Shown: piece by piece, positions 7,182 to 60,466 of the stretch
Layout of the letters: each line of letters opens with the position of its first letter
Position numbering within the stretch: position 1 is the first letter of the stretch
Assembly (NCBI GenBank): GCA_014728125.1
Contig: WJMD01000097.1
Span: forward strand, 2,833-66,832
From: Candidatus Effluviviaceae Genus V sp.
Lineage (GTDB): Bacteria; Joyebacterota; Joyebacteria; Joyebacterales; Joyebacteraceae
Direction: 5' to 3'
Length of the DNA stretch: 64,000 bases
Program-made: the position numbers and the translations under genes
Notes under the pieces: model-generated
Seen by the model: only the letters and a program-made list of their open reading frames with translations
Told to the model about the DNA's origin: nothing
Databases searched by the model: none

Positions 7182-7297
7182 ATACGACGACGACCGAAGA
7201 GAGTCAGCAAAGGGAAGAAGGAACACTGTCTCCACAGAGCGCACGGCGACAGGGGCCTCAGACAGTAGGAGTGAAATCGCCGCGAAAGGAGAGCAGC

Positions 7298-9409: not shown

Positions 9410-11734
9410 ATGCGACACGATTCGCGACTCCTGAGCCTTGTGCTCGCAGCGATCCTCGCCGTCACGCTTCAGGCCGCCGCCTATCCGAGGGACGATGCGG
9501 CTGTCGTCGAGATCGACGTCCATTCAAGGGCGGAGATCCACCATCTCAACGAGCTCGGCATGGACATCATGAACGTGCGGGACGGCGTTGCCGAGATCGC
9601 CGCCGTGCCCTCGGAGATCGACGTGCTGCGAGCCAACGGCTACATCCCGCGCATCGTCATGGAGCGCATGATCGACGGCGTGGCCTCGCTGCGTCTCGAG
9701 GACCGTGGGGAGTACCACAGCTACACCGAGCTGACGAACGACATGGCGGCGTGGGCTTCGGCCTATCCGAACATCACCGAGCTCGTCTCCATCGGTCAGA
9801 GCGTCCTCGGCCGCGAGCTCTGGGCGATGAAGATCACCGACAACCCGGCCATCGAGGAGTTCGAGCCGGAGATCCAGTGGATCGGGGCGCACCACGGCGA
9901 CGAGACGATCAGTGTCGAAGTGTGCTACTACATGATCGACCACCTTCTCGAGAACTACGGTACAGACCCCCAGGTCACGTGGCTCGTCGACGAACGCGAG
10001 ATCTGGATCATCCCGATGTTCAACCCCGACGGCCACACGAGCGGCTCCCGATACAACGGGAACGGCGAGGACCTCAACAGGGGCTACCTCTGTCCGTGCG
10101 GCTGCAACGCCGGCTCGGCCATGGCCCAGCCCGAGCACCAGGCGCTCGAGGCGTTCAACGAGCGGATGAACCCCGTGACGTCGCTCACGTTCCACTCGGG
10201 CGCGGTCTACGTCAACTACCTGTGGGACTACACGTATTCGGCCACGCCCGATGAGGCGATGCTCATCACGCTCTCCGAGGGCTACAGCTCGTACACGGGC
10301 CTCCCTGTGACGAACGGCGCCGACTGGTACATCGTCCACGGGAGCTGTCAGGACTGGTGCTACGACCAGCGCGGTGAGATCGACACGACCATCGAGGTCT
10401 CGACGACCAAGGACCCGCCCCAGTCTTCGATCGATCCGATCGTGTCGGACAACATCCCGGCGATGCTCTATCAGGCGCGGAAGTCGGGGAAGGGCATCCG
10501 GGGGCTTGTGACAGACGGCGAGACCGGCGAGCCGCTGTATGCGACGATCTCGATCCCCGAGATCGGAAAGGACGTCTACACGGACCCGGACGTCGGCGAC
10601 TACCACCGCATGGTCGAGTCGGGTACCTACACGGTTGTCTGTGAGGTCGAGGGATACCCCACCGAGACGGTCTACAACGTCTCGGCGAACCTCGACACGT
10701 TCGTCGTCGTCAACTTCGCCATGGAGCCTCCGCCCCGCGGCACGGTCGCGGGCTACGTCACCGACGAGCTCATGAACCCGATCGAGGCGACCGTCGAGGT
10801 CACCGACCTGACGGGCTACTCGGCCTCGTCGGACCCGGCGACCGGGTACTACGAGATCCCCTACATCCCGGCAGGCACGCACACGGTCCGGGCGAGCGCT
10901 CCGGGCTTCAGGACCGAGGAGCGGACCGGCGTCGAGGTTGTCGACAACACGACCTCGACGGAGAGCTTCGCGCTCGTCGCGCCGGTCTTCTACGACGACT
11001 TCGAGAGCGGGCTTTCGGGCTGGAACGGCTCGTGGGCGACGACCACCTCCGAGGCCATGAGTCCGACCCACTCGATGACCGACAGCCCGGGCGGCCAGTA
11101 CGGCAACAACGACTACACCGTGACCACACTGGCCAGCCCGGTCGATCTGACCGGTCATGCCGAGGCGGCGCTCGTCTTCTGGCACCGGTACGACACCGAG
11201 GCCGGATACGACATCTGCTACGTGGAGGTGAGTTCGGACGGCGGTTCGAGCTGGACGCAGGTCGGTTCGTACGACGGCCTGCAGAACGACTGGGTCGAGG
11301 AAGAGATCGACGTCTCTTCCTGGGCGGGGACGAGTCAGTTCCTCGTCAGGTTCACGCTGGACTCGGACGGCTGGATCACGGACGACGGATGGTACGTCGA
11401 CGACGTCCAGGTCTTCGGCGACCAGACGCTCTCGGGCATCGATGAGGAGATCGTCCGGGCCCCGCGCGTGGCCAACTACCCGAACCCGTTCAACCCGGTG
11501 ACCTCCGTGACCTACTCGGTACCGTCGCCCGGAAGCGTGACACTCGGGATCTACGACGTCTCGGGGCGGCTCGTCCGGACGCTGGTCGACGGAGCCGTCG
11601 AGGTCGCGGGCGAGCACAGCGCGACGTGGAACGGGACGGACGAGGGCGGCCGCTCGGTCGCCGGCGGCGTCTACTTCGCCCGTCTCGTGACCGACGCGGG
11701 GGAGGCCTCCTCGAAGCTCGTGCTGCTCAAGTAG
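9410..11734 (+). CDS. T9SS-secreted M14-family zinc carboxypeptidase with carboxypeptidase-regulatory-like domains
   Basis: A signal peptide is present. The M14 core is HSYTELT...ELWAMKITDNP...WIGAHHGDETIS (HxxE zinc ligands)...NRGY...FHSGA. Two CarboxypepD_reg-like beta-sandwich segments follow (GIRGLVTDGETGEPL; GTVAGYVTDELMNPIEATV). The C-terminal domain YPNPFNPVTSVTYSVP...VYFARL...KLVLLK is a T9SS sorting domain. Confidence 0.85.
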   Translation: MRHDSRLLSLVLAAILAVTLQAAAYPRDDAAVVEIDVHSRAEIHHLNELGMDIMNVRDGVAEIAAVPSEIDVLRANGYIPRIVMERMIDGVASLRLEDRGEYHSYTELTNDMAAWASAYPNITELVSIGQSVLGRELWAMKITDNPAIEEFEPEIQWIGAHHGDETISVEVCYYMIDHLLENYGTDPQVTWLVDEREIWIIPMFNPDGHTSGSRYNGNGEDLNRGYLCPCGCNAGSAMAQPEHQALEAFNERMNPVTSLTFHSGAVYVNYLWDYTYSATPDEAMLITLSEGYSSYTGLPVTNGADWYIVHGSCQDWCYDQRGEIDTTIEVSTTKDPPQSSIDPIVSDNIPAMLYQARKSGKGIRGLVTDGETGEPLYATISIPEIGKDVYTDPDVGDYHRMVESGTYTVVCEVEGYPTETVYNVSANLDTFVVVNFAMEPPPRGTVAGYVTDELMNPIEATVEVTDLTGYSASSDPATGYYEIPYIPAGTHTVRASAPGFRTEERTGVEVVDNTTSTESFALVAPVFYDDFESGLSGWNGSWATTTSEAMSPTHSMTDSPGGQYGNNDYTVTTLASPVDLTGHAEAALVFWHRYDTEAGYDICYVEVSSDGGSSWTQVGSYDGLQNDWVEEEIDVSSWAGTSQFLVRFTLDSDGWITDDGWYVDDVQVFGDQTLSGIDEEIVRAPRVANYPNPFNPVTSVTYSVPSPGSVTLGIYDVSGRLVRTLVDGAVEVAGEHSATWNGTDEGGRSVAGGVYFARLVTDAGEASSKLVLLK

Positions 11735-37337: not shown

Positions 37338-37478
37338 CGCGTGGCGGGTTTCTTGACTGCCGTCGCGGCCGTGCTAGACTGACGTCGTAGGGAGTTTCAG
37401 GGTCGCCTGAATGGGGGCAAGGTGGCAAACCGTACGCGAGGAAGCTGGCGGGATCCCGACGCGATCGGCGCGCCGAGA

Positions 37479-38705
37479 ATGCGCGCCTACGTCTTCGTCG
37501 CCGTCTCCGTGCTCGCGATCGCCATCTTCCTCTATACGAACAGCCTCATCAGGCGGCTCGAGGTTCAGGCGGCCACCCTCTCCCGGTCGATCGCCGGGCT
37601 CTGCGCCACGGCGACCTATGCTGCGAGGGAGAACGAGGAACTCCGTGTGATCTTCACGGAGCTCATCGAGACGATCAACTTCCCGATCGTCATCACCGAC
37701 GTCAGAGGAGTCCCGATCACGTGGAAGGGGCTCCCGATGGAGATCGACCCGTACGACGTCACGCACGAGGACTACCTCAACGCCGATCCCCAGGCCGGTG
37801 ACGAGACACCGCTGGGCGAGATCATGGCGTTCACGAGAGAGCTCGACCGCAAGCAGTCCCCGATTCCGATGACGCATCTCGGCGACGACACGGTGCTCGG
37901 CTACATTCACTACGGCGAGTCGAGCATGATCCGCGAGATGCGGTACGTCCCGCTCCTGGAGCTTCTGGCCTTCGGGATCCTCGTTGCGCTGGGTTTCCTG
38001 GGGTTCCGGAACGCGAAGCTCGCGGAGCTCAGGTCGATCTGGGTCGGCATGGCCAAGGAGACCGCACACCAGCTGGGCACGCCGATCTCCTCTCTGATGG
38101 GGTGGGTCGAGCTTCTCAGAAGCAGCGCTGACGAGGACTGCGTGGCCTGCAGCCGGATGAGCGGCATGGCCGACGAGATGCAGCGCGACCTGGAGCGGCT
38201 CGAAAAGATATCGCTCAGGTTCAACCAGATCGGCTCGATCCCGAAGACGAAACGTCAGGACGTCGTCATCGTCCTCAGAGAGGCGGTCGACTATCTCAGG
38301 CGGCGGCTCCGGGCGCTCGGCAAGGACGTCGCTCTCGAGGAGCTCTATCACGAGGTTCCGCCGGTCGACGTCAACCGCGAACTGATGGAATGGGTCGTCG
38401 AGAACCTGGTCAAGAACTCGACCGAGGCCCTGCCGCCCGAGGGAGGCAGGATCGTCATCTCGACGGAGTACGATCCGAAGCAGGGCTGCGTCCGCCTGCT
38501 CTTCACCGACAACGGCAAGGGACTCTCGCAGTCTGAGCGCCGCCGGATCTTCCTGCCCGGCTACTCCACCAAACGGCGGGGATGGGGCCTCGGACTGGCC
38601 CTCGCGCGGCGCATCATCGAGGAGTATCACAAGGGTCGGCTCTACGTCGGGTGGTCCGAGCCCGGCAAGGGGACGACCTTCGTCATATCGCTTCCGGCGA
38701 CGTAG
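37479..38705 (+). CDS. sensor histidine kinase (PorY-like)
   Basis: Two TM helices are present (MRAYVFVAVSVLAIAIFLY; LLAFGILVALGFLGF). The HisKA motif is ETAHQLGTPISSLMGW, and the HATPase_c motifs are ENLVKNSTEA...TDNGKGL...GWGLGLALARRI. Confidence 0.8.
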   Translation: MRAYVFVAVSVLAIAIFLYTNSLIRRLEVQAATLSRSIAGLCATATYAARENEELRVIFTELIETINFPIVITDVRGVPITWKGLPMEIDPYDVTHEDYLNADPQAGDETPLGEIMAFTRELDRKQSPIPMTHLGDDTVLGYIHYGESSMIREMRYVPLLELLAFGILVALGFLGFRNAKLAELRSIWVGMAKETAHQLGTPISSLMGWVELLRSSADEDCVACSRMSGMADEMQRDLERLEKISLRFNQIGSIPKTKRQDVVIVLREAVDYLRRRLRALGKDVALEELYHEVPPVDVNRELMEWVVENLVKNSTEALPPEGGRIVISTEYDPKQGCVRLLFTDNGKGLSQSERRRIFLPGYSTKRRGWGLGLALARRIIEEYHKGRLYVGWSEPGKGTTFVISLPAT

Positions 38706-38759: not shown

Positions 38760-40325
38760 ATGAACGGTCCCGTGAGGCGCATCCTCTGGGTCGACGACGA
38801 GATCGACCTCCTGAAGCCCCACATCATCTTCCTTGAGGGAAAGGGATACGAGGTCGGCACGGCGACGGGCGGCGAGGAAGCTGTCGAGATGATCCGTGAG
38901 AAGCCGTACGACATCGTGTTGCTGGACGAGATGATGGTCGGCATGGACGGACTGGAGACGCTCGGGCTCATCAAGGAGATCGACCCGGCACTCCACGTCG
39001 TCATGGTGACCAAGAGTGAGGAAGAGGAACTGATGAACGATGCGCTCGGGCGGCGCATCGACGACTTCCTGATCAAGCCGGTCAAGCCGACGCAGGTGCT
39101 TCTGGCGATCAAGCGCATCCTGGACGGGCGAAAGATGCGGCGCGACCAGACCGCCCAGAGCTACGCATCCGAGTTCAACGAGCTCCAGCGCCGACTGATG
39201 GAGCCGATGAACTGGGAGGAGTGGATCCAGCTCTACGTGCGTCTGGTGCACTGGGATCTCGAGCTCGACAAGAACCGCGATCCCGGACTTCAGCAGACGC
39301 ACGGAGACCTCAGACAGACCGCCAACGCGGAGTTCGGGCGCTTCGTCTCCGGGGAGTACGGGGCCTGGGTCAACGACGAGATCGACCGTCCCACGCTGTC
39401 GGTCGACATCTTCGAACGCTTCGTGGCGCCGCTTCTCAAGGCGCGAAAGAAGGTCTACTTCGTCGTTCTGGACTGCATGCGGCTCGATCACTGGCTGAGC
39501 ATCCAGAGCGACCTCGAAGGACTTTTCTCGATCACGAACAGCTACTACTACTCGATCCTGCCGACGGCCACGCCGTTCTCGAGGAACTCGCTCTTCGCGG
39601 GCCTGTGGCCGGTCGAGATCACGCAGTACGTGCCGGATCTCTGGGCGACCCCGGCGCGCGACGAGTTCAGCAAGAACCGGCATGAGCGGAGGCTCATGGA
39701 CCTGCAGATCGACCGCCACGGACTCCGCTTCTCGCCGGAGCACAAGTACGTGAAGATCTACGAGAAGGACGAGGCCGAGAACGTCAAACGGCAGATGGCC
39801 TCGTTCGTCGACCGGCGGTTCGTCTCGCTGGTCTATAACTTCGTCGACATCCTCTCGCACTCGCGTTCCGAGTCGGAGATCCTCCAGGAGATCGCGCCGG
39901 ACGAGGCGGCGTTCCGCTCCCTCGTGCGGTCATGGTTCAACCACTCGGCGCTCTACGACATCATCGCGGAGATGGCCAGGCAGGGCGCGACGGTCGTCCT
40001 GACCACCGACCACGGCGCGGTGCTCGGCAGGAGGGCAGCGCTGATCCGCGGCAACCGCGACACCTCGACCAACCTGCGCTACAAGTTCGGCAGCAACCTC
40101 GGATGCGACGAGAAGGAGACGTTCCTCATCAAGGAGCCGGCGAGGTTCAAACTCCCGGCCGACGGCGCCAGCAAGCAGTACGCGATCGCCAAGGAGGACT
40201 ACTACTTCGTCTACCCGACGGAGTTCCACCGTTACGAGCGGCAGTACAAGGGCAGCTTCCAGCACGGCGGCATCTCGCTCGAGGAGATGATCCTGCCGTG
40301 CGCCGTCATGGAGCCGAGATCGTGA
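38760..40325 (+). CDS. response regulator with receiver domain and C-terminal PglZ (alkaline-phosphatase-like) domain (PorX-like)
   Basis: The receiver domain is RILWVDDEIDLLKPHIIFLEGKGYEVGTATGGEEAVEMIREKPYDIVLLDEMMVGMDG...DFLIKP (the phospho-acceptor is likely the Asp in LLDEMM). The C-terminal 330 aa have PglZ-like metal-site residues (VVLDCMRLDHW; TTDHGAV). The total length is 521 aa. Confidence 0.8.
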   Translation: MNGPVRRILWVDDEIDLLKPHIIFLEGKGYEVGTATGGEEAVEMIREKPYDIVLLDEMMVGMDGLETLGLIKEIDPALHVVMVTKSEEEELMNDALGRRIDDFLIKPVKPTQVLLAIKRILDGRKMRRDQTAQSYASEFNELQRRLMEPMNWEEWIQLYVRLVHWDLELDKNRDPGLQQTHGDLRQTANAEFGRFVSGEYGAWVNDEIDRPTLSVDIFERFVAPLLKARKKVYFVVLDCMRLDHWLSIQSDLEGLFSITNSYYYSILPTATPFSRNSLFAGLWPVEITQYVPDLWATPARDEFSKNRHERRLMDLQIDRHGLRFSPEHKYVKIYEKDEAENVKRQMASFVDRRFVSLVYNFVDILSHSRSESEILQEIAPDEAAFRSLVRSWFNHSALYDIIAEMARQGATVVLTTDHGAVLGRRAALIRGNRDTSTNLRYKFGSNLGCDEKETFLIKEPARFKLPADGASKQYAIAKEDYYFVYPTEFHRYERQYKGSFQHGGISLEEMILPCAVMEPRS

Positions 40326-47142: not shown

Positions 47143-50100
47143 GTGATCCCCATCCTCTTTCTTGCGCTCGCCCTGTCAGCGACCTCCCCGCAGCAGGCGG
47201 GGGGCGATGACGGCTTCATCATCTCAGCCGACACGGTCGAGGGAAGCGAGGGCCCCGAGGGAAGGGTCGTCGAACTCTACGGGAACGTCTCGATCACGCG
47301 TCGCGGCGCCGTCCTCACCGGCGCTCGAGGCACGGTCTACGAGGACACCGGACTCGCCGTCATCAGGGGGAACGTGCGCGGAACCGACGGGCCCGCCTCG
47401 ATCGCATGCGACTCGCTCAGATACTATCGTGACGACGACGTGGCCGTTCTGACCGGGAATGCGTCGTACGCCGACACATCGGTCGTCGCCCGCGCGCGCC
47501 GCATCGACATCTACCGTCTGGACGAGATCGCTGTCTTCTCGGGGGACGTCGTGGCCGAGGACGTCGACGGCGAGGCCGAGCTCACCGCGCAGCGGCTCGT
47601 CTACGACGCCGCCCGCGGCGAGGCCCGATCGTACGGGGATCCAGTCCTCACGACCTATGACGATGAGGGTGCGATCGATGCCGTGCTTCGTGGAGACGTC
47701 ATCGAGATGGCCACGGAGACGGAGACGATCAGGGCCTTCGGAAGCACGCGGATCGAGACGCGCGACGTCATGGCGCGGGCCGGGGTGGCGACACTCTTCG
47801 GGGAGGACGAGAGGATCGTGCTCGACGGCTCGCCGTCGGTGCAGCAGGACACCGACCGGATGAGCGGCGGGCGCGTGGTCGTCGCGACGGCGGACGGCGA
47901 GATCGAGCGCGTCGACGTGACGGGGGGTGCGCGAGCCGACTACACGATCGAACCCGACGAGCCCGGAGGTGACCTTGAGTCCGGCTACGTCGCGGGCGAC
48001 AGTCTGACGATGTACTTCGCGAACGGGGATCCGGTCAGGACCTTCGTCCGCGGTCGGGCCGAGAGCGAGCACGCCGTCGGGCTCTCCGGCGAGCGCAACA
48101 CGCTGTCGGCGCGGACCATCGACGTCAGGTTCTCCGAGGGCAGGATCAACCGGGCGACCTTCCGCGGGAACGCCCAGGGCGTCTACGTCTTCGTCCCGGA
48201 GGATGGGGGAGAGACGGCCGGGAGCGACACGACGGCCTTCGACCGGGTGGCCTACGCGTCGACGACGATCGACTACTACGTTCCCAGGAACAGGATCGTC
48301 CTCACGAAAGGAGCCCGGGTCGAGTACAAGAGCACCGAGCTCAGGGCCGGGCGGATCGAGTTCGACCCAGAAGAGGAACTGATGATCGCGAGCGAGAGTC
48401 CTGACCTCCTTGAGGAGGGCGAGCGACTCGTGGGGTCGCGTCTCGGCTACGACCTGAGCGACGAGTCGGGCGCCGTCGTCGGTGGCGTCACGACATTCGA
48501 GGAGGGGCTCTACGCCGGCGACTGGATCGTACGCGAGTCCGACGGCTCACTGAGCGTCAGGGACGGCGTCTACACGACGTGCGCCGACGAGCACCCGCAC
48601 TATCGGCTGGTCGCGTCGCGGATGCGCATCTACCTCGATGACAAGGTCGTCGCGCGGCCCGTCATCCTCTACATCGGTGAGATCCCGGTGCTGGCACTCC
48701 CGTTCTATGTCTTTCCCATCCGCAAGGACAGGCACTCGGGGTTCCTCATTCCGACCATCGAGGTCGGCCTGTCCGGGGACAAGGGCCGGTTCGTGCGGAA
48801 CTTCGGCTACTACTGGGCCCCGAACGACTACGTCGACGTCTCCGCCTGGGCCGACTACTACGAGCAGACGAGATGGGTCGGTCACCTCAAGGCGCGCTAC
48901 AAGGTGCGCTATGCCCTGTCCGGATCGGTCGAGTCGTCGTTCACCGACGAGCTGGCGGGCGGAAAGCGCCGCTGGGACCTCAAGGTCACCCACCGCCAGG
49001 AGTTCGGCCGCCACTGGACGGCCGGCGCCTCCGGGGACTTCCGGAGCGATGCCGCGTACGCCACCGACACGAACCAGACGATCGAGGAGAGCGTCAACAG
49101 GAGCCTCCACTCCCAGCTGTGGTTCCGGGGGCGGTGGAGCGGTGTCTCGGTCGGCGTGACGCTCGACCGCAGGGAGGAGCTCGACCAGGACCGCGTGTCG
49201 GAGCTCCTGCCCAAGGCCGACATCTCGTTCTCGTCGAAGCCCATTCTGTCGGCGGAGAGGGACGACGGCGCGTTCAGAAAACTGCTCTCCGAGATATCCG
49301 TCGGCTGGAGGGCGCTCGCCGTCAACGACAGGGACACCTCGGGAGACGACGAGGAGGTGCACCAGGGCGTGGGGGTGTCGATGTCCCTGCGTTCGAGCAT
49401 CAAGGCGTTCCGGTGGGTCAACCTGACCCCGCGGCTCAACATCAGGGCGAACGTCTACGACCGGGGCCGCGACGGCGGGGAGTTCCCGACGAGGGTGACC
49501 TACGACGCGGGTGTCTCGGCCGGCACGACGGTCTACGGGACCTTCATGCCCGAGATCGGCCCCGTCAGAGGGGTGCGCCACATCGTGGAGCCGTCGGCCT
49601 CCTTCTCCTGGACCCCGGAGTTTTCGCAGTACTTCGAAGAGGACGGGACCGACCGCTTCTACTCCTTCAGCGGGTTCGGAGGCACGCCGGGGGCGAGGAA
49701 GTCCCTGAGCCTCTCGCTCGTGAACAGGCTTCAGGTGAAGCTCTCCTCTGGTGACGACACCCGCAAGCTGGACAATCTGGCGAGGCTGTCGTTCCGGAGC
49801 AGCTACGACTTCCGTCGCGACGACGAACGGTGGTCCGATCTGTCATCGGGGTTCGAGCTTCGCCCGGGCCGGGCGCTCTCCTTCCGGTGGTCGGGACGCC
49901 ACGACCCGTACGACGGCTGGGCCATTCAGAACTCCAGTCTGACGACGACGGTCACGCTGAACGGGAGCGCACCGGCGGCCGACCGGACGTGGGAGGACCG
50001 CGTGCAGGACATGGCGTCTCCGAGCCCGGTCGACGAGCTGAGACAGCAGATCGCGGAGCGCGCGAGATCGGGACTCACGACGCTGAAGCCGTGGAGCGCC

Positions 50101-50406
50101 TCGATGACCTTCCGGTACTCGAGAGGAGCGTCGTCCGCCAGCGAATCGTACTGGGTCGACGGCAGCGTGGCCTTCTCGCCGACGCCGAAGTGGCGGCTCA
50201 ACTACTCGCTGCACTACGATCTCGAGGCCGGCGAGGTCGCCAGCCAGGAGTACACGATCTATCGTGACCTCCACTGCTGGGAGGCCCAGTTCACGCGCCG
50301 CTACTACAACGACGAGTGGCAGTACTACTTCAGGATCAGTGTCAAGGCGCTTCCCGAGCTCCAGGCCGAGTCCGGCGAGCGCTACCTTTCACGAGGAATC
50401 CGCTAG
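47143..50406 (+). CDS. lptD: LPS-assembly protein LptD-like outer-membrane protein (extended N-terminal OstA-like repeats + C-terminal beta-barrel)
   Basis: A signal peptide is present. Repeated OstA/LptA-like beta-jellyroll segments follow (LYGNVSITRRGAVLTGARG; VFSGDVVAEDVDGEAELTAQRLVYD...). The C-terminal portion of about 500 aa is LptD_C-like (GFLIPTIEVGLSGDKGRFVRNFGYYWAPNDYVD...). At 1087 aa it is longer than E. coli LptD. Confidence 0.65.
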   Translation: MIPILFLALALSATSPQQAGGDDGFIISADTVEGSEGPEGRVVELYGNVSITRRGAVLTGARGTVYEDTGLAVIRGNVRGTDGPASIACDSLRYYRDDDVAVLTGNASYADTSVVARARRIDIYRLDEIAVFSGDVVAEDVDGEAELTAQRLVYDAARGEARSYGDPVLTTYDDEGAIDAVLRGDVIEMATETETIRAFGSTRIETRDVMARAGVATLFGEDERIVLDGSPSVQQDTDRMSGGRVVVATADGEIERVDVTGGARADYTIEPDEPGGDLESGYVAGDSLTMYFANGDPVRTFVRGRAESEHAVGLSGERNTLSARTIDVRFSEGRINRATFRGNAQGVYVFVPEDGGETAGSDTTAFDRVAYASTTIDYYVPRNRIVLTKGARVEYKSTELRAGRIEFDPEEELMIASESPDLLEEGERLVGSRLGYDLSDESGAVVGGVTTFEEGLYAGDWIVRESDGSLSVRDGVYTTCADEHPHYRLVASRMRIYLDDKVVARPVILYIGEIPVLALPFYVFPIRKDRHSGFLIPTIEVGLSGDKGRFVRNFGYYWAPNDYVDVSAWADYYEQTRWVGHLKARYKVRYALSGSVESSFTDELAGGKRRWDLKVTHRQEFGRHWTAGASGDFRSDAAYATDTNQTIEESVNRSLHSQLWFRGRWSGVSVGVTLDRREELDQDRVSELLPKADISFSSKPILSAERDDGAFRKLLSEISVGWRALAVNDRDTSGDDEEVHQGVGVSMSLRSSIKAFRWVNLTPRLNIRANVYDRGRDGGEFPTRVTYDAGVSAGTTVYGTFMPEIGPVRGVRHIVEPSASFSWTPEFSQYFEEDGTDRFYSFSGFGGTPGARKSLSLSLVNRLQVKLSSGDDTRKLDNLARLSFRSSYDFRRDDERWSDLSSGFELRPGRALSFRWSGRHDPYDGWAIQNSSLTTTVTLNGSAPAADRTWEDRVQDMASPSPVDELRQQIAERARSGLTTLKPWSASMTFRYSRGASSASESYWVDGSVAFSPTPKWRLNYSLHYDLEAGEVASQEYTIYRDLHCWEAQFTRRYYNDEWQYYFRISVKALPELQAESGERYLSRGIR

Positions 50407-51281: not shown

Positions 51282-52649
51282 ATGCAGCAGCTGGTCGCTA
51301 CCGTCATCAGGCGGACCGAGACCGGGCGCCGGACGACGTCCACGGGGCTGTCGGCGAGACGGCTGTCGCTCCGCGTCAGGGTCGAGGGGCCCGTCGAGAA
51401 GGCCCTCGCCGTTCCTGACCGGGTGAAGGGCAGGGAGATGACCATCGTGCGCGAGGTGCCGGGTCGATGGGGCATCCGCCGGGGCGACACGATCGTGCTC
51501 AGCCGGAAGGAGAGCGCGAGGGCGCTGTGTCCAAGGAGGGCATCGCTTCCCGAGCTCCCGTCGGGCGCCGACGCGGTGAGGCTCGACACCGGCGACATCG
51601 ACAGAGACGGCTTCGAGGAGGACCGTCTCTCGAACGCCTTCGTGGAGGCGGTGCTCAAGCCCCACCGCGGCGCGCGCCTCGCATCGCTCAGGGACTGCGG
51701 CGGCGTCGACCGCTTCGCGCAGCCCTTCGAGCACATCATGGCGGGGAAGTACGTGCTCCTCGGGGGCGCCGAGGACCTCATCTTCGAATCGGGTTCGCCC
51801 GGGAAGCTCTGGAACGCCGCCCTCGAACGCGAGCAGGGCGGGGCCGGCGAGGCCGTGTACGGAACGAAGCTCAAGAGCCCCGCCCACGTTCGCCTCCGGA
51901 AGCGCGCGTGGACGGAGCCGGGTCTCCCCGGTGTCATCACCGAGGTCCGCATCCGGTATGACGGTACGTCGAACGACGAGGCCGGACGGGAGAGCGCGGA
52001 CGAGGACAGGACGGCGATCTCGTACGGCATCAGGCTCTCGACGGCGGTCACCGGAACCGCGTCGAGGAACGTCTTCGACGTCCCCGGCCCCGGCGGCGTC
52101 AAGGTCGTCCGGTACGTCAGGCCGCCTCACGGCAGGCGCTGGCGATGGCGCGACTGGAGGGACGAGAGCTTCGGGCTGAGGGGAGGCTTCCTGATCAGCC
52201 GTCACGAGGTGCTCGGGCGCCCTCTCATGGTGCTTTTCAGCGCCCGCCGGGCGCTCTGCGTGGGCATCCGGAACGACCTTCCGGGGCCGGAGGTCGTGCT
52301 GCGGCACAGGACGGTCCGCCTCAGAGCGGATGCTGAGCGGCCGTGGGGCGCGGCCTTTCTGTCGGGCGATGCCTCGTGCGCGTCCGGTAAGAGCGCGCTG
52401 CTTCTTTCCCGCGACAGAACGGGCACAAGACTTGCGGTCAGCGTCCGGACGGCGCGACGTGTCGAGCGGATCCGGGCCTCGCTTCTGACGGCGGGCGGAC
52501 GGCGGCGGCTGACGCTCCGCCCCGTCGAGGTCCCGTACGCCGGACATCTGCATACGGGCGTGCTCGAGGACCTGGACGCCATGAGGCGGCTGGCATGCCG
52601 CGTGCGCGTCGCCGACGACGTGCTCCGCGCGGCGCTGGAGGACGCATGA
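51282..52649 (+). CDS. hypothetical protein (translationally coupled to the downstream GCS2 ligase)
   Basis: This 455-aa ORF has coding-like GC3. The opposite-strand ORF is antisense-like. The stop TGA overlaps the ATG of the next gene (ATGA). No family was recognised. Confidence 0.5.
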   Translation: MQQLVATVIRRTETGRRTTSTGLSARRLSLRVRVEGPVEKALAVPDRVKGREMTIVREVPGRWGIRRGDTIVLSRKESARALCPRRASLPELPSGADAVRLDTGDIDRDGFEEDRLSNAFVEAVLKPHRGARLASLRDCGGVDRFAQPFEHIMAGKYVLLGGAEDLIFESGSPGKLWNAALEREQGGAGEAVYGTKLKSPAHVRLRKRAWTEPGLPGVITEVRIRYDGTSNDEAGRESADEDRTAISYGIRLSTAVTGTASRNVFDVPGPGGVKVVRYVRPPHGRRWRWRDWRDESFGLRGGFLISRHEVLGRPLMVLFSARRALCVGIRNDLPGPEVVLRHRTVRLRADAERPWGAAFLSGDASCASGKSALLLSRDRTGTRLAVSVRTARRVERIRASLLTAGGRRRLTLRPVEVPYAGHLHTGVLEDLDAMRRLACRVRVADDVLRAALEDA

Positions 52650-53884
52650 TAAGGGCGCTCGAACCCCTGACGCTCGGATACGACTGGGAGATGGCCGTTC
52701 TCAGGCCGTCGGGTGAGAACGTGTCCGAGAAGGACGTCACCGAGCTGGGCGACGACCTGCGCTCGAAGCTGTCCTGGGCGGAGACCGGCACCGATTTGGA
52801 GCTTCTGGAGAGCCGGATCGGCGCGGTCCGGAGCTTCGGTGAACTCCTGAAGAAGAGCGAGCGCTTCGACGAGGTGCTCACGGAGGAACTCGAGCGCCGA
52901 GGGTGGGGGCTGCTCCGGCTCGGAGCGAGGCCGTTCCAGATGGAGCCCGTCGGGGCGCACGTCCACGTGGGGACCGTGTCGAGCACGCGGGCGGCGATCG
53001 GTATCCAGAACGGGATGATCCCGTACACTGCGCCTCTCGCCGCGCTCTGCGTCAACAGCGCCGTCTACCGGTCGCGCTGGGGCGACTACAAGAGCTACCG
53101 CGTCGCGTCGTTCGCGGAGGGCTGCTCGACCCCACAGGGCGTCTACCGACCCGAGACGTCGCAGTGGATCTGGGGTACGGACGTCAACGCGAAGCATGCC
53201 TGGGGCTCGACCGTCGAGCTCCGGGTCGCAGACTGTACAGGGTCGGTCCGCCTGATGTGCGAGGTCACCGCGTTCGTCGCGGGCATGATGTTCCACGTCG
53301 CGGAGCACGGGCTCGACCGCGAGGTCGGCACGGACGAGTATCGCGAGTTCCTCGTGAACCGCTGGCGGGCCGCTCGGCACGGTCTTCAGGCCGTGTTCGA
53401 GCGGAACGGACGAGGGATCGAGGTCGTCTCACTGTTGACAGAGATGCTGGAGATGGCGCAGGATGGCCTTGAACTCCTCGGGACGTCCGTCGGAGATCTG
53501 AAGGTCGTCCGGGCCATGCTCAGGAAGCGCCAGACGCAGGCCGACTTCCAGAGGGCGCTTTTCGAGATGGACGGGTGCGATCCCTATCGCCACACGCGGA
53601 CCATGATGAACGTTCAGAGGGATCCCAGGGCCTTCGAGCGCTACCTGCGGACGGCGCCGATGCTCGAAGCACTCGAGCCCGAGGACCACGACGCGTTCCT
53701 CCTCGGCCTGGTCGAGGTCGAGACGCCCTACCATATGCTGCTCCGTGCGACTCCGCTCGGACCGGACGCTCTCGACCGTCTGCTCGAGCGTCTCGTGCGC
53801 GAGGGCCTCGTCGTCGAGGGGCGGGACCCCATGGGGGTCAGAACGTATACGCGGGCCGGCGCCCTGCCCGAGCAGCCGAACTGA
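52646..53884 (+). CDS. glutamate-cysteine ligase family 2 (GCS2/YbdK-type carboxylate-amine ligase)
   Basis: LTLGYDWEMAVLRPSG and the GCS2 hallmark GAHVHVGTVSS are present, with the later ELRVAD pattern. The start was set at ATG 52646; the ORF is open from 52595. Confidence 0.7.
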   Translation: MIRALEPLTLGYDWEMAVLRPSGENVSEKDVTELGDDLRSKLSWAETGTDLELLESRIGAVRSFGELLKKSERFDEVLTEELERRGWGLLRLGARPFQMEPVGAHVHVGTVSSTRAAIGIQNGMIPYTAPLAALCVNSAVYRSRWGDYKSYRVASFAEGCSTPQGVYRPETSQWIWGTDVNAKHAWGSTVELRVADCTGSVRLMCEVTAFVAGMMFHVAEHGLDREVGTDEYREFLVNRWRAARHGLQAVFERNGRGIEVVSLLTEMLEMAQDGLELLGTSVGDLKVVRAMLRKRQTQADFQRALFEMDGCDPYRHTRTMMNVQRDPRAFERYLRTAPMLEALEPEDHDAFLLGLVEVETPYHMLLRATPLGPDALDRLLERLVREGLVVEGRDPMGVRTYTRAGALPEQPN

Positions 53885-56773: not shown

Positions 56774-57463
56774 ATGGCGGATCGGCCTGGAACGGGCACG
56801 CTCTATCTGGTGGCGACTCCGATAGGCAACCTCGGGGACGTGACCCGGAGAGCGCTCGACATCCTGGGCACGGTCGACTCGATCGCCTGCGAGGACACGA
56901 GGCGCACCCGGAAGCTCCTGTCACACTACGACATCGATACGAAGCTCACGGCCTACCACGACCACAACGAAGAGAGGGCCTCGCGCGGGATCGTCGAGCG
57001 TCTGCGCGAAGGGAAGGACGTCGCCCTCGTCACCGACTCGGGGACACCCCTCATTTCCGACCCGGGTTACCGCCTGGTCTCGATGGCCGTCGAGGAGGGC
57101 CTCGACGTGGTTCCCGTTCCGGGCCCGTCGGCCGTCGTCGCGGCGCTCTCCGCGGCGGGGCTTCCGCCGCATCCGTTCCTGTTCGCGGGCTTTCTCCCCA
57201 GGAAATCGGGGGCACGGAGACGCCGCATCGAAGAGCTGGGCGCCGTGCACGCCACCCTCGTTCTCTATGAGTCTCCGCACAGGATCGCCGCGGCGCTCGC
57301 CGACCTCGCCGACGTTCTGGGCGATCGGCGCGGGGCCGTCCTGAGGGAGCTCACGAAGGTCCACGAGGAGATCCTGCGCGGTACGCTCCCGGAACTGGCG
57401 GATGAGGTTTCCCGGCGTCGGCTCAAGGGAGAGATCGTCATCGTCATCGGCCCCGGCGCCTGA
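56774..57463 (+). CDS. rsmI: 16S rRNA (cytidine1402-2'-O)-methyltransferase
   Basis: GTLYLVATPIGNLGDVTRRALDIL...ACEDTR...VALVTDSGTPLISDPG is the tetrapyrrole-methylase-fold RsmI signature. Confidence 0.85.
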   Translation: MADRPGTGTLYLVATPIGNLGDVTRRALDILGTVDSIACEDTRRTRKLLSHYDIDTKLTAYHDHNEERASRGIVERLREGKDVALVTDSGTPLISDPGYRLVSMAVEEGLDVVPVPGPSAVVAALSAAGLPPHPFLFAGFLPRKSGARRRRIEELGAVHATLVLYESPHRIAAALADLADVLGDRRGAVLRELTKVHEEILRGTLPELADEVSRRRLKGEIVIVIGPGA

Positions 57464-57482
57464 GCGTCCGGAGGGGGGCGGA

Positions 57483-58559
57483 GTGAGCGTCCTGAGCGTG
57501 GTTGTGGCCCTGGTGCTGGCCGTAACGCCGGCTGAGGAGCGGGAACTCGATCGGATCGCCACGCTGGGCTACGTGGCGGGCTCGGTTCCCGCCGTCGATA
57601 CGACCGGCGTGCTGGTGCGCGAGCCGGACCGAATGGCTTCAGGCCTGACGCTCTACACGCCCTCGGCGGGTCCGGAGGCGCTCCTCATCGACTCGGAGGG
57701 CAGGACCGTTCACCGCTGGAGCCTGCGCGGCTCGTCGTACTGGGCCAGGGTCAGGATGATGGACGACGGTTCGCTCCTCGTCATCACGTGTGACCCGGCG
57801 CGGCTCATGAAGATCGACCACACCTCGGAGAGGCTCTGGCGCGCCTCGGGGACCGCCCACCACGATCTCGACGTCGACTCGGAAGGCAGGATCTACGTCC
57901 TCATGCGGGAGGCCGTGACGCGGGACGGCATCCACGACGGCGGTAACATCCTCGACGACGAGATCGCGATCCTCGACCAGTATGGCAAGGGTCTGGGGAC
58001 GGTGTCGATACTTGACGCGTTCCGTGCGTCCGACAGGTACGCCTCGTGGGTCTCCGACGACGCCCTGCCCGAGGGACCGGACATCCTCCACACGAACTCG
58101 ATCGAGGTCTACGAACGGGACGGTCGGAGAGAGGCTCTGGTGTCGATCAGGAGCATCGGAACGATAGCCCTCATCGACCTCGACGGGGGCGGTCTCGTCT
58201 GGGCCCTGCGTGGAGCGTGGCGGATGCAGCACGAAGCGCACTTCGTCTCGGACCGCATCCTGCTCTTCGACAACCTCGGACTCGGTGACGACCGGTCGCG
58301 GGTCATCGAGGTCGACCCCGCGAGCGGGGAGATCCTCTGGGAGTGGACCGAGCCGGGCTTCTTCTCACGGGGAGCGGGAGCGGTCCAGAGGCTCTCGAAC
58401 GGCAACACGCTCATCACGGAGTCGGAGAACGGCCGGATCATCGAGATCGACCCATCCGGCTCGGTCGTCTGGGAGTATCTCAATCCGGTGACGATCGACC
58501 GGGGCCGGACGCTCACTCTGGGGATCATGCGCGCCGAGCGCATCGAGCAGAGTCCCTAG
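57483..58559 (+). CDS. arylsulfotransferase (ASST)-like beta-propeller protein
   Basis: GTG 57483 follows GGAGGGGGG, and the signal/anchor is VSVLSVVVALVLAV. Repeated propeller blades are present, with HHDLDVDSEGRIYVL, ILHTNSIEVYERDG and NGNTLITESENGRIIEID. Confidence 0.55.
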   Translation: MSVLSVVVALVLAVTPAEERELDRIATLGYVAGSVPAVDTTGVLVREPDRMASGLTLYTPSAGPEALLIDSEGRTVHRWSLRGSSYWARVRMMDDGSLLVITCDPARLMKIDHTSERLWRASGTAHHDLDVDSEGRIYVLMREAVTRDGIHDGGNILDDEIAILDQYGKGLGTVSILDAFRASDRYASWVSDDALPEGPDILHTNSIEVYERDGRREALVSIRSIGTIALIDLDGGGLVWALRGAWRMQHEAHFVSDRILLFDNLGLGDDRSRVIEVDPASGEILWEWTEPGFFSRGAGAVQRLSNGNTLITESENGRIIEIDPSGSVVWEYLNPVTIDRGRTLTLGIMRAERIEQSP

Positions 58560-58654
58560 GCCGCGGCCGCCTGCTTGACACCTCTTTCGCGGCGGTGCTA
58601 GACTGCGCCGTTCGGCAGACACCTCGTCGGAAGGAACCCGGGGCTTCAGTTCCC

Positions 58655-59263
58655 ATGGCTGTGAAGGGCATCAAGGCACGGGCCCGTTCCGTGCTCGATC
58701 CGGTGGCTCGATTCGCGGCCGACGTCGGGGTGACGCCCGCGGGGCTGACGCTGGCCGGACTGGCGTTGTCCGGTCTGGCGGGGTTCAGCATCGCCCACGG
58801 CAGGTTCCCTGTCGCGGGCGTGCTGCTCGTGCTGGCCGGTGTCTGCGACATGCTCGACGGTGCGGTAGCGCGCCTGTCGAACCGGACGAGCGACGAAGGT
58901 GCCTTCCTCGACTCGACGGTCGACAGGTATGCCGAGGCCGTGGTGCTCCTCGGGGCGCTTCACTACTACCTCTTCCGGTCCGCGACCGCCCCTGAGACCG
59001 CGACGGCGATCGCGATCTTCCTGGCGTTCTGGGGCTCTTTGCTCGTGAGCTACACGCGGGCGCGGGCCGAGGGGCTCGGGAGGAGCTGCACCGTCGGAAT
59101 AGCCGAGAGACCCGAGCGTGTCGTGCTGCTGATCGTCGGGGCGCTCCTGGGTTCCGGCGTCATGCGGATCGTGTTGTGGGTCCTGGTCGTTCTCACCCAC
59201 CTCACGGCGCTCCAGCGTATCCTCCATGTTCTCTATGCGGGCGGAGGGCGGCCGCGCTCCTAG
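58655..59263 (+). CDS. CDP-alcohol phosphatidyltransferase (probable phosphatidylinositol-phosphate synthase-type)
   Basis: The D-G-x2-A-R...G...D-x3-D motif appears as CDMLDGAVARLSN...GAFLDSTVDRYAE. The protein is 202 aa with several TM helices. Confidence 0.75.
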   Translation: MAVKGIKARARSVLDPVARFAADVGVTPAGLTLAGLALSGLAGFSIAHGRFPVAGVLLVLAGVCDMLDGAVARLSNRTSDEGAFLDSTVDRYAEAVVLLGALHYYLFRSATAPETATAIAIFLAFWGSLLVSYTRARAEGLGRSCTVGIAERPERVVLLIVGALLGSGVMRIVLWVLVVLTHLTALQRILHVLYAGGGRPRS

Positions 59264-59296
59264 CGTAGCCCCCGTGCCCGGGGAGACGGACAACTT

Positions 59297-60466
59297 ATGT
59301 CGAAGAACAAGGTACGTGTCGCGATCATAGGCATCGGCAACTGCGCATCGTCGCTGGTCCAGGGCGTCCAGTACTACAAGGACGCTCCCGAGGACGCCTT
59401 CGTGCCCGGTCTCATGCATGTCAACCTGGGCGGCTATCACGTGGGCGACGTCGAGTTCTCGGCGGCGATCGACATCGACAGGAACAAGGTCGGTAAGGAC
59501 CTCTCCGAGGCCATCTTCATCGAGCCCAACAACACCTACAGGTTCTCCGACGTTCCGAAGCTCGATGTTCCGGTCGTACGCGGCATGACCCACGACGGTC
59601 TCGGCAAGTACCTCTCCGAGATCATCGAGAAGGCGCCCGGGCCGACGGACGACATCACGGGCATTCTGAAGGAAACGAAGACGGACGTCGTCGTCAACTT
59701 CCTGCCGGTCGGCAGCGAGGAGGCGACGAAGTGGTACGTGGAGCAGATCCTCGATGCCGGATGCGGCTTCGTGAACGGCATCCCCGTCTTCATCGCGCGG
59801 GAGCGGTACTGGCAGCAGCGCTTCGAAAAGAAGGGCCTGCCCGTCATGGGAGACGACATCAAGTCTCAGGTCGGCGCGACGATCGTCCACCGGGTCCTGA
59901 CGCGGCTCTTCCGCGACCGCGGCGTCAGGCTCGAGAGAACGAGCCAGCTCAACGTGGGCGGCAACACGGACTTTCTGAACATGCTCGAGCGGTCCCGGCT
60001 CGAGTCGAAGAAGATCTCGAAGACCGGCGCCGTCACCTCGCAGCTCGACTACGACATCGGCAAGGGCAACGTCCACATCGGTCCCTCGGACTACGTCGAG
60101 TGGCTCTCCGACCGGAAGTGGGCCTATGTGCGGATGGAGGGACGGACGTTCGGCGACGTGCCGCTCAACGCCGAACTCAAGCTCGAGGTCTGGGATTCGC
60201 CGAACTCGGCCGGCGTCATGATCGACGCCGTCAGGTGCATGAAGCTTGCGATGAACCACGGGCTCTCGGGCGCAATAGCGGCGCCGTCCTCGTACTTCTT
60301 CAAATCTCCTCCAGTGCAGTACACGGACGACGAAGCCCGGCACCTGACCGAGCGCTTCATCGAGGAGCACGCTCTCGACGCCGGCAGGGAGACCGACGCC
60401 GGGATCGGGTCCGACGGGGAATCCGGACCGCAGGAGGAGCTGATCAAGGAGCCGTCCGGTTCCTGA
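59297..60466 (+). CDS. ino1: myo-inositol-1-phosphate synthase (bacterial/archaeal type)
   Basis: A Rossmann motif [18 protein letters not shown] is present. The MIPS core motifs are [19 protein letters not shown] and SYFFKSPP. The protein is 389 aa. Confidence 0.8.

Follow-up and report, generated by a model that had tools for sequence, protein, structure and literature searches.

Results and Discussion

Organization of the locus

The pair of genes described here lies in a 64-kb window (the whole stretch of DNA analyzed, 64,000 nucleotides) from a Candidatus Eisenbacteria MAG, representing an uncultured soil or sediment bacterium of the diderm type, with LptD present. The initial annotation had placed a gene for MIPS, the synthase that makes myo-inositol-1-phosphate, directly downstream of a gene for a small CDP-alcohol phosphatidyltransferase, and the ORF list together with the Pfam matches to both genes bears out this arrangement. 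The features of the locus are:

58575..58604, + strand: promoter-like sequence with TTGACA and TAGACT 18 nt apart and a TG preceding the -10 element; 10/12 consensus matches, a consensus match only
58655..59263, + strand: 202-aa predicted phosphatidylinositol-phosphate synthase (PIPS), a CDP-alcohol phosphotransferase that falls in the inositol-phosphate-transferring clade (PF01066, NCBIfam, PDB, structural model, residues)
59264..59296, + strand: intergenic spacer, 33 nt, with a GGAG Shine-Dalgarno-like motif at 59282-59285, which precedes the ATG of MIPS by 11 nt
59297..60466, + strand: myo-inositol-1-phosphate (inositol-3-phosphate) synthase, predicted short actinobacterial/archaeal type, 389 aa (PF01658, TIGR03450, PDB 1gr0)

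The transferase gene is enclosed in a longer ORF (58343-59263, + strand), of which the ATG at 58655 is the biologically supported start, because two homologues (P0002 and P0005, 77-80% identity) and an identical NCBI protein (P0001) all begin there. Its product matches PF01066 (CDP-OH_P_transf; 57.5 bits, cut-off 22) and possesses in TM2-TM3 the signature of class I CDP-alcohol phosphotransferases, which can be read straight from the translation as D65-x2-D68-G69-x2-A72-R73-x8-G82-x3-D86-x3-D90, with 8/8 catalytic-motif residues kept. The product of the downstream gene matches PF01658 (Inos-1-P_synth; 123.7 bits, cut-off 27), aligns through residues 4-355 with Ino1 of M. tuberculosis (PDB 1gr0; 471 bits, E 2e-140), and ends in an acidic tail of ~34 aa; the second-ranked match, a five-membered cyclitol-phosphate synthase, attains 183.5 bits only. 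The best NCBIfam model, TIGR03450 (mycothiol_INO1), is matched over its full length with 528.6 bits, which is below its cut-off of 638. On these matches, we classify the protein as a predicted MIPS (EC 5.5.1.4) of the short prokaryotic type, outside the mycothiol-linked actinobacterial equivalog. Given 4107 homologues of the transferase at E <= 1e-5 among the candidates scored, and the E-value of MIPS against Ino1, the predicted identities of both proteins are far beyond chance.

Both genes lie on one strand and are separated by 33 nt; the gaps between their counterparts in the relatives are likewise short (28-41 nt). The scan of the + strand between 57300 and 61300 revealed no terminator-like site in the gap, and this region contains only two such sites, at 59019-59034 (weak, within the ORF of the transferase) and at 61218. 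The promoter-like site is situated upstream of the transferase, in a gap of 95 nt and inside the extension of the longer ORF, and is one of 2 sites found by the promoter scan, compared to 0.3 in shuffles. The upstream promoter-like site, the narrow gap, and the lack of a terminator within it suggest that the two genes may be co-transcribed as a small operon.

Classification of the transferase

By sequence and by structure, the transferase is nearer to the characterized PIPS enzymes than to PgsA, PssA or the DIPP synthase (DIPPS). Among the NCBIfam models, it scores 151.8 bits with the archaeal archaetidylinositol-phosphate synthase (AIPS), 122.4 with PIPS, 120.4 with the Bacteroides PIPS, 56.7 with DIPPS, and 26.6 with pgsA (TIGR00560, cut-off 109.1); the other PgsA model, PRK10832, gives 26.1 bits against a cut-off of 304. 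The PDB sequence search retrieved PIPS of R. salmoninarum with an E-value of 4e-23 and the mycobacterial PIPS enzymes with 3e-17 to 4e-16, followed by DIPPS (1e-10) and S. aureus PgsA (4e-3); identity to the solved PIPS enzymes amounts to 28-36%. The AlphaFold model (pLDDT 92.7) consists of an N-terminal helix and six long helices, predicted to form a compact six-TM-helix bundle that superimposes on the PIPS structures with an rmsd of ~2 Å. Foldseek, with TM-scores normalised to the query, aligned this model to PIPS at 0.79-0.86, to AF2299/DIPPS at 0.73-0.81 and to PgsA at 0.53-0.55. In a simple neighbour-joining tree calculated with no bootstrap, which serves solely to separate PgsA coarsely from PIPS/AIPS, the transferase groups with an archaeal homologue and those PIPS enzymes whose structures are solved, while E. 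coli PgsA forms a long outgroup branch. PgsA identity had been named beforehand as the outcome that would speak against an inositol-lipid role; although PgsA of E. coli or S. aureus shares the superfamily and the signature motif, this identity was rejected on the concordant HMM scores, PDB matches, tree and TM-scores, and on the acceptor-site residues described below.

The scores remain below the curated cut-offs of AIPS (NF040950, 180), PIPS (NF045883, 170) and BT_1523 (NF052561, 350) and, on this measure, the transferase falls outside all three narrow equivalogs. All ten family members scanned, including those from operons of the GT4/PIM type, are under the PIPS and BT_1523 cut-offs, and the AIPS cut-off is reached by one only (L044).

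In the M. tuberculosis PIPS, PgsA1, the phosphate of inositol-1-phosphate (Ins-1-P) is bound by R94, S132, Y133, K135, R137, R155 and R195, with R152 as the floor residue (PMC6506517, PMC9385802; PgsA1 numbering, as in these papers). The transferase has kept these positions as R91, S132, Y133, R135, R137, R155 and R188, and R152, with Arg in place of the mycobacterial K135. According to the alignment mapping, they are invariant in 83/83 members of the family, whereas E. coli PgsA differs at six of them (K, A, W, T, Q, Y).

Gene neighborhood and phyletic distribution

Within Eisenbacteria, the pair belongs to a housekeeping block that is conserved (recJ-rsmI-PIPS-MIPS-tmk-S41 protease-dusB), and it is kept in 6/6 of the Eisenbacteria-type loci examined (the window, L002, L004, L015, L085 and L086). 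Its place in such a block suggests a membrane trait that is constitutive and inherited vertically, not an island of recent acquisition. Zixibacteria and Gemmatimonadota show the order rsmI-transferase-MIPS-tmk-S41 protease as well, the latter having in the same slot a different MIPS, of the long type (PF07994, 346 bits). Because the pair sits in housekeeping synteny conserved among related phyla, its adjacency there is partly inherited and not independently selected. Across the family as a whole, at least five gene orders and two divergent types of MIPS are found:

transferase-MIPS-tmk: Eisenbacteria, Zixibacteria
transferase-MIPS-GT4: Thermoleophilia/Actinomycetes
MIPS-acyltransferase-GT4-transferase: Chloroflexota, resembling the mycobacterial PIM operon
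MIPS-transferase: Nitrospirota
transferase-MIPS: Methanoperedens (archaeon), locus L083

Of 80 species-representative loci, 26-29 have MIPS no more than 4.5 kb away from the transferase, and 51 have no MIPS within this distance. When the neighbors from 82 related loci were clustered, the recurring ones were MIPS, GT4, a lipid A-type acyltransferase, tmk, rsmI and the S41 protease; no conserved phosphatase was among them.

At least 594 species-representative genomes encode a member of the transferase family, and diderm phyla contribute many of these genomes. The initial statement that inositol lipids are uncommon in Gram-negative bacteria is thus overstated at the level of genes.

Proposed pathway

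We consider it probable, with good confidence, that the pair constitutes an operon by which an inositol glycerophospholipid is made de novo, from glucose-6-phosphate through Ins-1-P and phosphatidylinositol phosphate (PIP) to phosphatidylinositol (PI). The inositol phospholipid reading proposed from the initial inspection is strengthened by the PIPS-like placement of the transferase, the retention of its inositol-phosphate site, and the pairing with MIPS across phyla in independent gene orders. In the proposed scheme, MIPS would use NAD to cyclise glucose-6-phosphate to L-myo-inositol-1-phosphate (= D-myo-inositol-3-phosphate). The six-helix membrane transferase would bind CDP-diacylglycerol via a two-metal site (D65, D68, D86, D90), while R91, S132, Y133, R135, R137, R155 and R188 would hold the phosphate of inositol-phosphate. 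With D90 acting as the base, the phosphatidyl group would be transferred to the inositol 1-hydroxyl, yielding PIP and CMP, and a phosphatase presumably encoded outside the window would then convert PIP to PI. The scans of the concatenated ORFs against Pfam, together with NCBIfam scans, detected no PIP phosphatase, IMPase, CdsA, or PgsA/second CDP-alcohol transferase in the 64-kb window. In Bacteroides, the PIP phosphatase is a PgpA-like protein (PMC9246714), and the mycobacterial one is described as unidentified in the papers cited here.

The pathway itself is well understood, with the same chemistry as in mycobacteria and Bacteroides, and the novelty lies in a lineage that lacks a prior report rather than in the mechanism. 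No paper linking Eisenbacteria to inositol lipids was found in the literature searched, and the search for polar lipids of Gemmatimonadetes containing PI returned nothing relevant.

Alternative functions

According to a review, archaeal glycerol-phosphate transferases group inside the inositol-phosphate transferase clade, and therefore membership in this clade alone leaves the acceptor unfixed. It could be that the transferase is an archaeal-like PGP/AGP synthase that uses glycerol phosphate, that its adjacency to MIPS is an inherited order without function, and that MIPS feeds another use of inositol. This would agree with the lack of a canonical PgsA in the window, with the PgsA label carried by the family at JGI, and with two loci (L003 and L043) that retain transferase-tmk without MIPS. 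However, a 64-kb window is too small to show the absence of PgsA, the contacts to Ins-1-P are invariant in the family and differ at six positions in E. coli PgsA, the linkage to both types of MIPS recurs in unrelated gene orders, and the members from Chloroflexota sit in PIM-like operons together with an acyltransferase and GT4; we regard a glycerol-phosphate acceptor as unlikely. It is also unlikely that MIPS chiefly supplies non-lipid products, such as mycothiol-like thiols, inositol glycans or capsule, with a minor flux, if any, into lipids. The top-scoring mycothiol_INO1 model and the large polysaccharide gene cluster at about 17-37 kb of the window would fit such a role, but the score is below the cut-off of that model and the window showed no genes for mycothiol, while the tight pairing with a lipid transferase of the inositol-phosphate type speaks for lipid as one destination at least. 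Moreover, non-lipid products are compatible with the synthesis of PI rather than exclusive of it.

Another conceivable product is soluble, for example the inositol compound di-myo-inositol phosphate (DIP), which would serve in osmotic or heat protection and be made by a DIPP synthase from CDP-inositol and Ins-1-P. MIPS catalyzes the first step of DIP synthesis as well, and the IPCT-DIPPS proteins of Archaeoglobus and Thermococcales share with our protein the CDP-alcohol phosphotransferase fold and the Ins-1-P acceptor, which is reflected in the weak matches to DIPPS (56.7 bits; 4mnd with 1e-10; TM 0.73). However, the PIPS structures and models fit better throughout, and the inositol-1-phosphate cytidylyltransferase (IPCT) is neither fused to the transferase, nor adjacent to it, nor present elsewhere in the 64-kb window. 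DIP is typical of hyperthermophiles, and there is no sign of such a lifestyle here. We rejected the DIPP synthase identity on account of the missing IPCT in the window and the weak model score (cut-off 580); a soluble product, in contrast to the lipid predicted here, appears extremely improbable. The transferase might instead be a functional AIPS acting on an isoprenoid ether donor similar to CDP-archaeol, in which case mixed or ether membranes would partly bridge the lipid divide between Bacteria and Archaea. The AIPS model indeed gives the highest curated score, the inositol-phosphate residues are common to both groups, and the homologue from Methanoperedens is 41% identical and followed by MIPS in identical order. 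In addition, donor specificity is unreadable from sequence, and the review cites work in which these transferases are reported to take, to some extent, bacterial as well as archaeal donors. Nevertheless, bacterial controls, including members of GT4/PIM-type operons, also score higher with AIPS than with PIPS (160.8 vs 142.5 for L055, 168.3 vs 146.7 for L082). Because actinobacterial and other bacterial members show this pattern too, the AIPS-best score is uninformative about the donor, and the argument that an AIPS-like protein uses an archaeal donor was rejected, the pattern being common to ordinary bacterial PIPS controls. The host is a bacterium, the AIPS cut-off is missed, and no CarS-, GGGPS- or DGGGPS-like gene of archaeal lipid synthesis is found in the 64-kb window; an ether donor therefore seems very improbable. 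It is likelier that Eisenbacteria, Zixibacteria and Gemmatimonadota share the synthesis of inositol lipids as a core trait of ancestral origin, inherited vertically and fixed in the rsmI-PIPS-MIPS-tmk slot, with the MIPS of Gemmatimonadota swapped in place.

Comparison with characterized systems and implications

The synthesis of PI proposed here would follow the two-step logic via PIP known for the mycobacterial and actinobacterial PIPS enzymes, i.e. M. tuberculosis PgsA1 (Rv2612c; 6h53/6h59), those of M. kansasii (6wm5/6wmv) and R. salmoninarum (5d92), with Ino1 (1gr0) as the MIPS. The likeness extends to the fold, the signature motif and the residues of the inositol-phosphate site, whereas the modest identity, the score below the NCBIfam PIPS cut-off, and the diderm host with LptD set the Eisenbacteria protein apart. 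The loci differ as well, in that the Actinobacteria-type pairs are followed by GT4 genes. In the window, no PimA-like GT4 or acyltransferase gene adjoins the pair, and therefore nothing suggests glycolipids of the PIM/LAM type. Another closely comparable system is the BT_1522-BT_1526 cluster of Bacteroides thetaiotaomicron, a diderm that makes PI via PIP, with the PIPS BT_1523 and the MIPS BT_1526 clustered (Heaver et al. 2022, PMC9246714). Here the similarity concerns the cell envelope of the host, the clustering of the two genes and the proposed PIP intermediate. On the other hand, the transferase scores far below the BT_1523 cut-off, and equivalents of the clustered PgpA-like PIP phosphatase (BT_1525) and inositol-phosphoceramide synthase (BT_1522) are absent both from the window and from the flanks in the relatives.

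If our prediction is correct, members of a candidate phylum with an LPS-type outer membrane have PI as a standing component of their membranes. To our knowledge, Eisenbacteria have no cultured representatives. The textbook list of bacteria with inositol lipids comprises Actinobacteria, Bacteroidetes and myxobacteria; the extension of the same locus design to Zixibacteria and Gemmatimonadota would be further evidence that environmental bacteria carry these lipids far more widely. Lipids of the PI type recovered from soil or sediment would then not need to be of eukaryotic or actinobacterial origin, which is relevant to work on lipid biomarkers. The window yielded no matches in the tRNA scan or in Rfam at gathering thresholds. 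Finally, members of the transferase family are named "PgsA" or generic CDP-alcohol transferase in public records, and this annotation can be corrected.

The gene pair and its surroundings

The initial annotation had placed a CDP-alcohol phosphotransferase gene (hereafter the transferase) next to a gene for MIPS (myo-inositol-1-phosphate synthase) in this high-GC (~67%) window, and both genes were recovered at 58655-60466:

58575-58604, +: promoter-like site TTGACA-18-TAGACT, a consensus match, within the upstream extension of the mechanical transferase ORF
58655-59263, +: transferase, 202 aa (Pfam PF01066, 57.5 bits)
59297-60466, +: MIPS, 389 aa (Pfam PF01658, 123.7 bits)

For the transferase, whose mechanical ORF opens at 58343, we prefer the ATG at 58655, because close homologues begin at the equivalent methionine, because the promoter-like site falls inside the extension of the longer ORF, and because the 100%-identical NCBI protein P0001 ('MAG: CDP-alcohol phosphatidyltransferase family protein [Candidatus Eisenbacteria bacterium]') is equally long. 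The two genes share a strand and are separated by 33 nt; GGAG precedes the MIPS ATG by 11 nt, no terminator-like site was found in the gap, and the genes are presumably co-transcribed.

The pair belongs to a housekeeping run that reads LptD, HU, NfeD, an SPFH protein, RecJ, RsmI, an arylsulfotransferase-like β-propeller, transferase, MIPS, Tmk, an S41 protease and DusB, and its LptD points to LPS transport in a diderm envelope:

47143-50406: LptD
57402-58559, +: arylsulfotransferase-like β-propeller, between rsmI and the transferase (PF14269, 76.8 bits; PF05935, 50.5 bits)

The β-propeller gene is shared with the 80%-identity relative at locus L085 and is missing from that slot in the more distant Eisenbacteria (L002, L086); therefore it resembles a lineage-specific insertion.

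Identity of the two enzymes

According to five independent lines of evidence (HMMs, solved structures, fold, residues and tree), the transferase is of the inositol-phosphate type, as had been proposed, and not a PgsA. Its scores against curated HMMs are 151.8 bits for archaeal archaetidylinositol-phosphate synthase (AIPS), 122.4 for actinobacterial phosphatidylinositol-phosphate synthase (PIPS), 120.4 for the Bacteroides BT_1523-type PIPS, 56.7 for di-myo-inositol-phosphate-phosphate (DIPP) synthase and 26.6 for pgsA. None of the three narrow equivalog models (AIPS and both PIPS) is matched at its cut-off, so the transferase is filed under none of them and is placed in the broader inositol-phosphate-transferring PIPS/AIPS clade. 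Among solved structures, a sequence search retrieved the PIPS of R. salmoninarum (4e-23) and of mycobacteria (3e-17 to 4e-16), followed by DIPP synthase (DIPPS) and AF2299 (~1e-10) and S. aureus PgsA (4e-3). The AlphaFold model (22-sequence alignment; pLDDT 92.7, pTM 0.86) superimposes in Foldseek on PIPS entries with TM 0.79-0.86 and rmsd ~2 Å, on AF2299/DIPPS with TM 0.73-0.81, and on PgsA with TM 0.53-0.55.

In M. tuberculosis PgsA1 the metal ligands are D68, D71, D89 and D93, the inositol-phosphate site comprises R94, S132, Y133, K135, R137, R155 and R195, and R152 is a conserved floor residue (PMC6506517, PMC9385802). The aligned residues of the transferase (D65, D68, D86, D90, R91, S132, Y133, R135, R137, R152, R155 and R188) are all invariant across the 83-member family alignment, whereas six acceptor-site positions carry other residues in E. 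coli PgsA (from NC_000913.3): K, A, W, T, Q and Y. A phylogeny had been suggested as a check; in a neighbour-joining tree that has E. coli PgsA as its root, lacks bootstrap support and serves only for the coarse split between PgsA and PIPS/AIPS, the transferase groups with other Eisenbacteria, in an ingroup that also includes two PIPS enzymes of solved structure and one homologue from an archaeon.

Residues 4-355 of the MIPS align to M. tuberculosis Ino1 (PDB 1gr0; 471 bits, E 2e-140), while the second-best structure, a five-membered cyclitol-phosphate synthase, reaches merely 183.5 bits. The enzyme is of the short MIPS type and carries an additional acidic tail of ~34 aa.

Distribution and gene linkage

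Our scan, in which each GTDB species was represented by a single genome, confirmed at least 594 relatives of the transferase, so that the family is present in hundreds of species. The best 80 of these come from Eisenbacteria, Zixibacteria, Gemmatimonadota, Krumholzibacteriota, Chloroflexota, Nitrospirota, Nitrospinota, Desulfobacterota, Acidobacteriaceae, Aquificota, Thermoleophilia/Actinomycetes and one Methanoperedens archaeon, and in 26-29 of these 80 loci a MIPS lies within 4.5 kb of the transferase. The RecJ-RsmI-transferase-MIPS-Tmk-S41-Dus block is kept in Eisenbacteria-type contigs (L002, L085, L086, L004 and L015; transferase identity 58-80%), and the pair sits in a conserved core synteny common to Eisenbacteria, Zixibacteria and Gemmatimonadota, phyla usually assigned to or near the FCB group.

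Gene orders of transferase and MIPS by lineage
Eisenbacteria and Zixibacteria: transferase-MIPS-Tmk(-S41)
Gemmatimonadota and Longimicrobiales: Eisenbacteria-type slot with long-type MIPS (441 aa; PF07994, 346 bits)
Thermoleophilia and Actinomycetes: transferase-MIPS-GT4
Chloroflexota: MIPS-lipid A-type acyltransferase-GT4-transferase
Nitrospirota: MIPS-transferase
Methanoperedens: transferase-MIPS

The long-type MIPS, undetected by tblastn with the window MIPS, occupies the slot between transferase and tmk in L020, L027 (6687-8012), L038, L041 and L072, and in Gemmatimonadota one MIPS type seems to have replaced another at the same position. That transferase and MIPS act together is well supported by their independent, repeated joining in differing gene orders and with MIPS of two divergent types. 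The Chloroflexota loci L010, L013, L016, L022, L048 and L080 (MIPS, PF03279 acyltransferase, GT4, transferase) resemble the mycobacterial PIM operon, which suggests acylated PI-glycolipids.

The Krumholzibacteriota locus L043 has the order transferase-tmk without MIPS. In L003, a 2.39-Mb contig of the P0103 protein lineage (51% identity), a β-eliminating lyase/aminotransferase-fold gene (6958-8588; PF01212, 316.5 bits) overlaps the transferase start; tmk is still downstream, and no MIPS was found within 8 kb.

Proposed pathway and alternatives

Judging by the computed family membership, fold, conserved sites and gene linkage, we consider it probable that the pair serves inositol phospholipid synthesis via phosphatidylinositol phosphate (PIP). 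MIPS would convert glucose-6-phosphate to L-myo-inositol-1-phosphate, and the transferase, probably dimeric by analogy with its solved relatives, would take the phosphatidyl group from CDP-DAG and attach it to the 1-hydroxyl of inositol, with PIP and CMP as products; a phosphatase encoded elsewhere would then yield PI. Pfam scanning of the 43 remaining predicted window proteins revealed no inositol monophosphatase and no PgpA/PAP2/HAD-type lipid phosphatase, hence the predicted PIP phosphatase would be encoded outside the window; nor did neighbour clustering across the relatives' loci reveal a conserved phosphatase. The same 43 proteins include no cytidylyltransferase, CdsA, second CDP-alcohol transferase or archaeal lipid enzyme. 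The route via PIP to PI is established in mycobacteria (PMC6506517, PMC9385802), and B. thetaiotaomicron makes PI via PIP with the PgpA-like phosphatase BT_1525 (Heaver et al. 2022, PMC9246714). The pathway, the gene pairing and the broad prokaryotic spread have been described in that study and, according to a review, by Morii et al. 2014; our literature search found no paper tying Eisenbacteria to inositol lipids.

The archaeal AIPS model scores highest for the transferase, and it is tempting to read this as an archaeal-type lipid donor. However, in a control of ten other family members, bacterial proteins gave the same order: actinobacterial MAG proteins in GT4 operons (160.8 vs 142.5 bits, L055; 168.3 vs 146.7, L082) as well as members from Zixibacteria, Gemmatimonadota, Nitrospirota and Aquificota. 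The ranking is thus a product of model construction and no sign of donor preference; the control speaks against inferring the donor from the AIPS score, and CDP-archaeol is a highly improbable donor. Least probable of all is a DIPP synthase, given its weak model score and the lack of inositol-1-phosphate cytidylyltransferase (IPCT) in the window. Glycerol-phosphate as the acceptor is improbable, even though archaeal G3P transferases cluster inside the inositol-phosphate group according to the review. That MIPS feeds chiefly non-lipid products is quite improbable too; its score against the full mycothiol-linked equivalog TIGR03450 is 528.6 bits, under the cut-off of 638.

AIPS outscores PIPS among NCBIfam models for most bacterial members scanned; nearly all are under every equivalog cut-off, and therefore form a clade without a specific curated model. 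Public annotations of the family are generic, or PgsA; most members carry the JGI label 'CDP-diacylglycerol--glycerol-3-phosphate 3-phosphatidyltransferase', probably a systematic misannotation.

Other features of the window

No tRNA genes (ARAGORN) or Rfam families (gathering threshold) were found in the 64-kb window. Its other features include:

7271-9316 and 9410-11734, +: a pair of large secreted proteins with C-terminal FlgD_ig / Por_Secre_tail-type sorting domains, one an M14 carboxypeptidase
17103-37337: surface-polysaccharide/O-antigen-type cluster with UDP-glucose dehydrogenase, Wzx-like flippase, Wzy_C and Wza/Wzz-like export proteins
38760-40325, +: response-regulator receiver fused to PglZ (alkaline-phosphatase fold), adjoining a histidine kinase (37422-38705)
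51282-52649, +: 455-aa ORF without Pfam match, with coding-type GC3 (0.88), just upstream of the following ligase
52595-53884: GCS2/YbdK-like carboxylate-amine ligase (weak NCBIfam matches only, no Pfam hit)

The polysaccharide cluster, ~20 kb away from the inositol genes, also encodes several GT2/GT4 glycosyltransferases, an epimerase/dehydratase and a GT4-family WecA/MraY-like transferase. The sorting domains of the two secreted proteins suggest a type IX-like secretion route.
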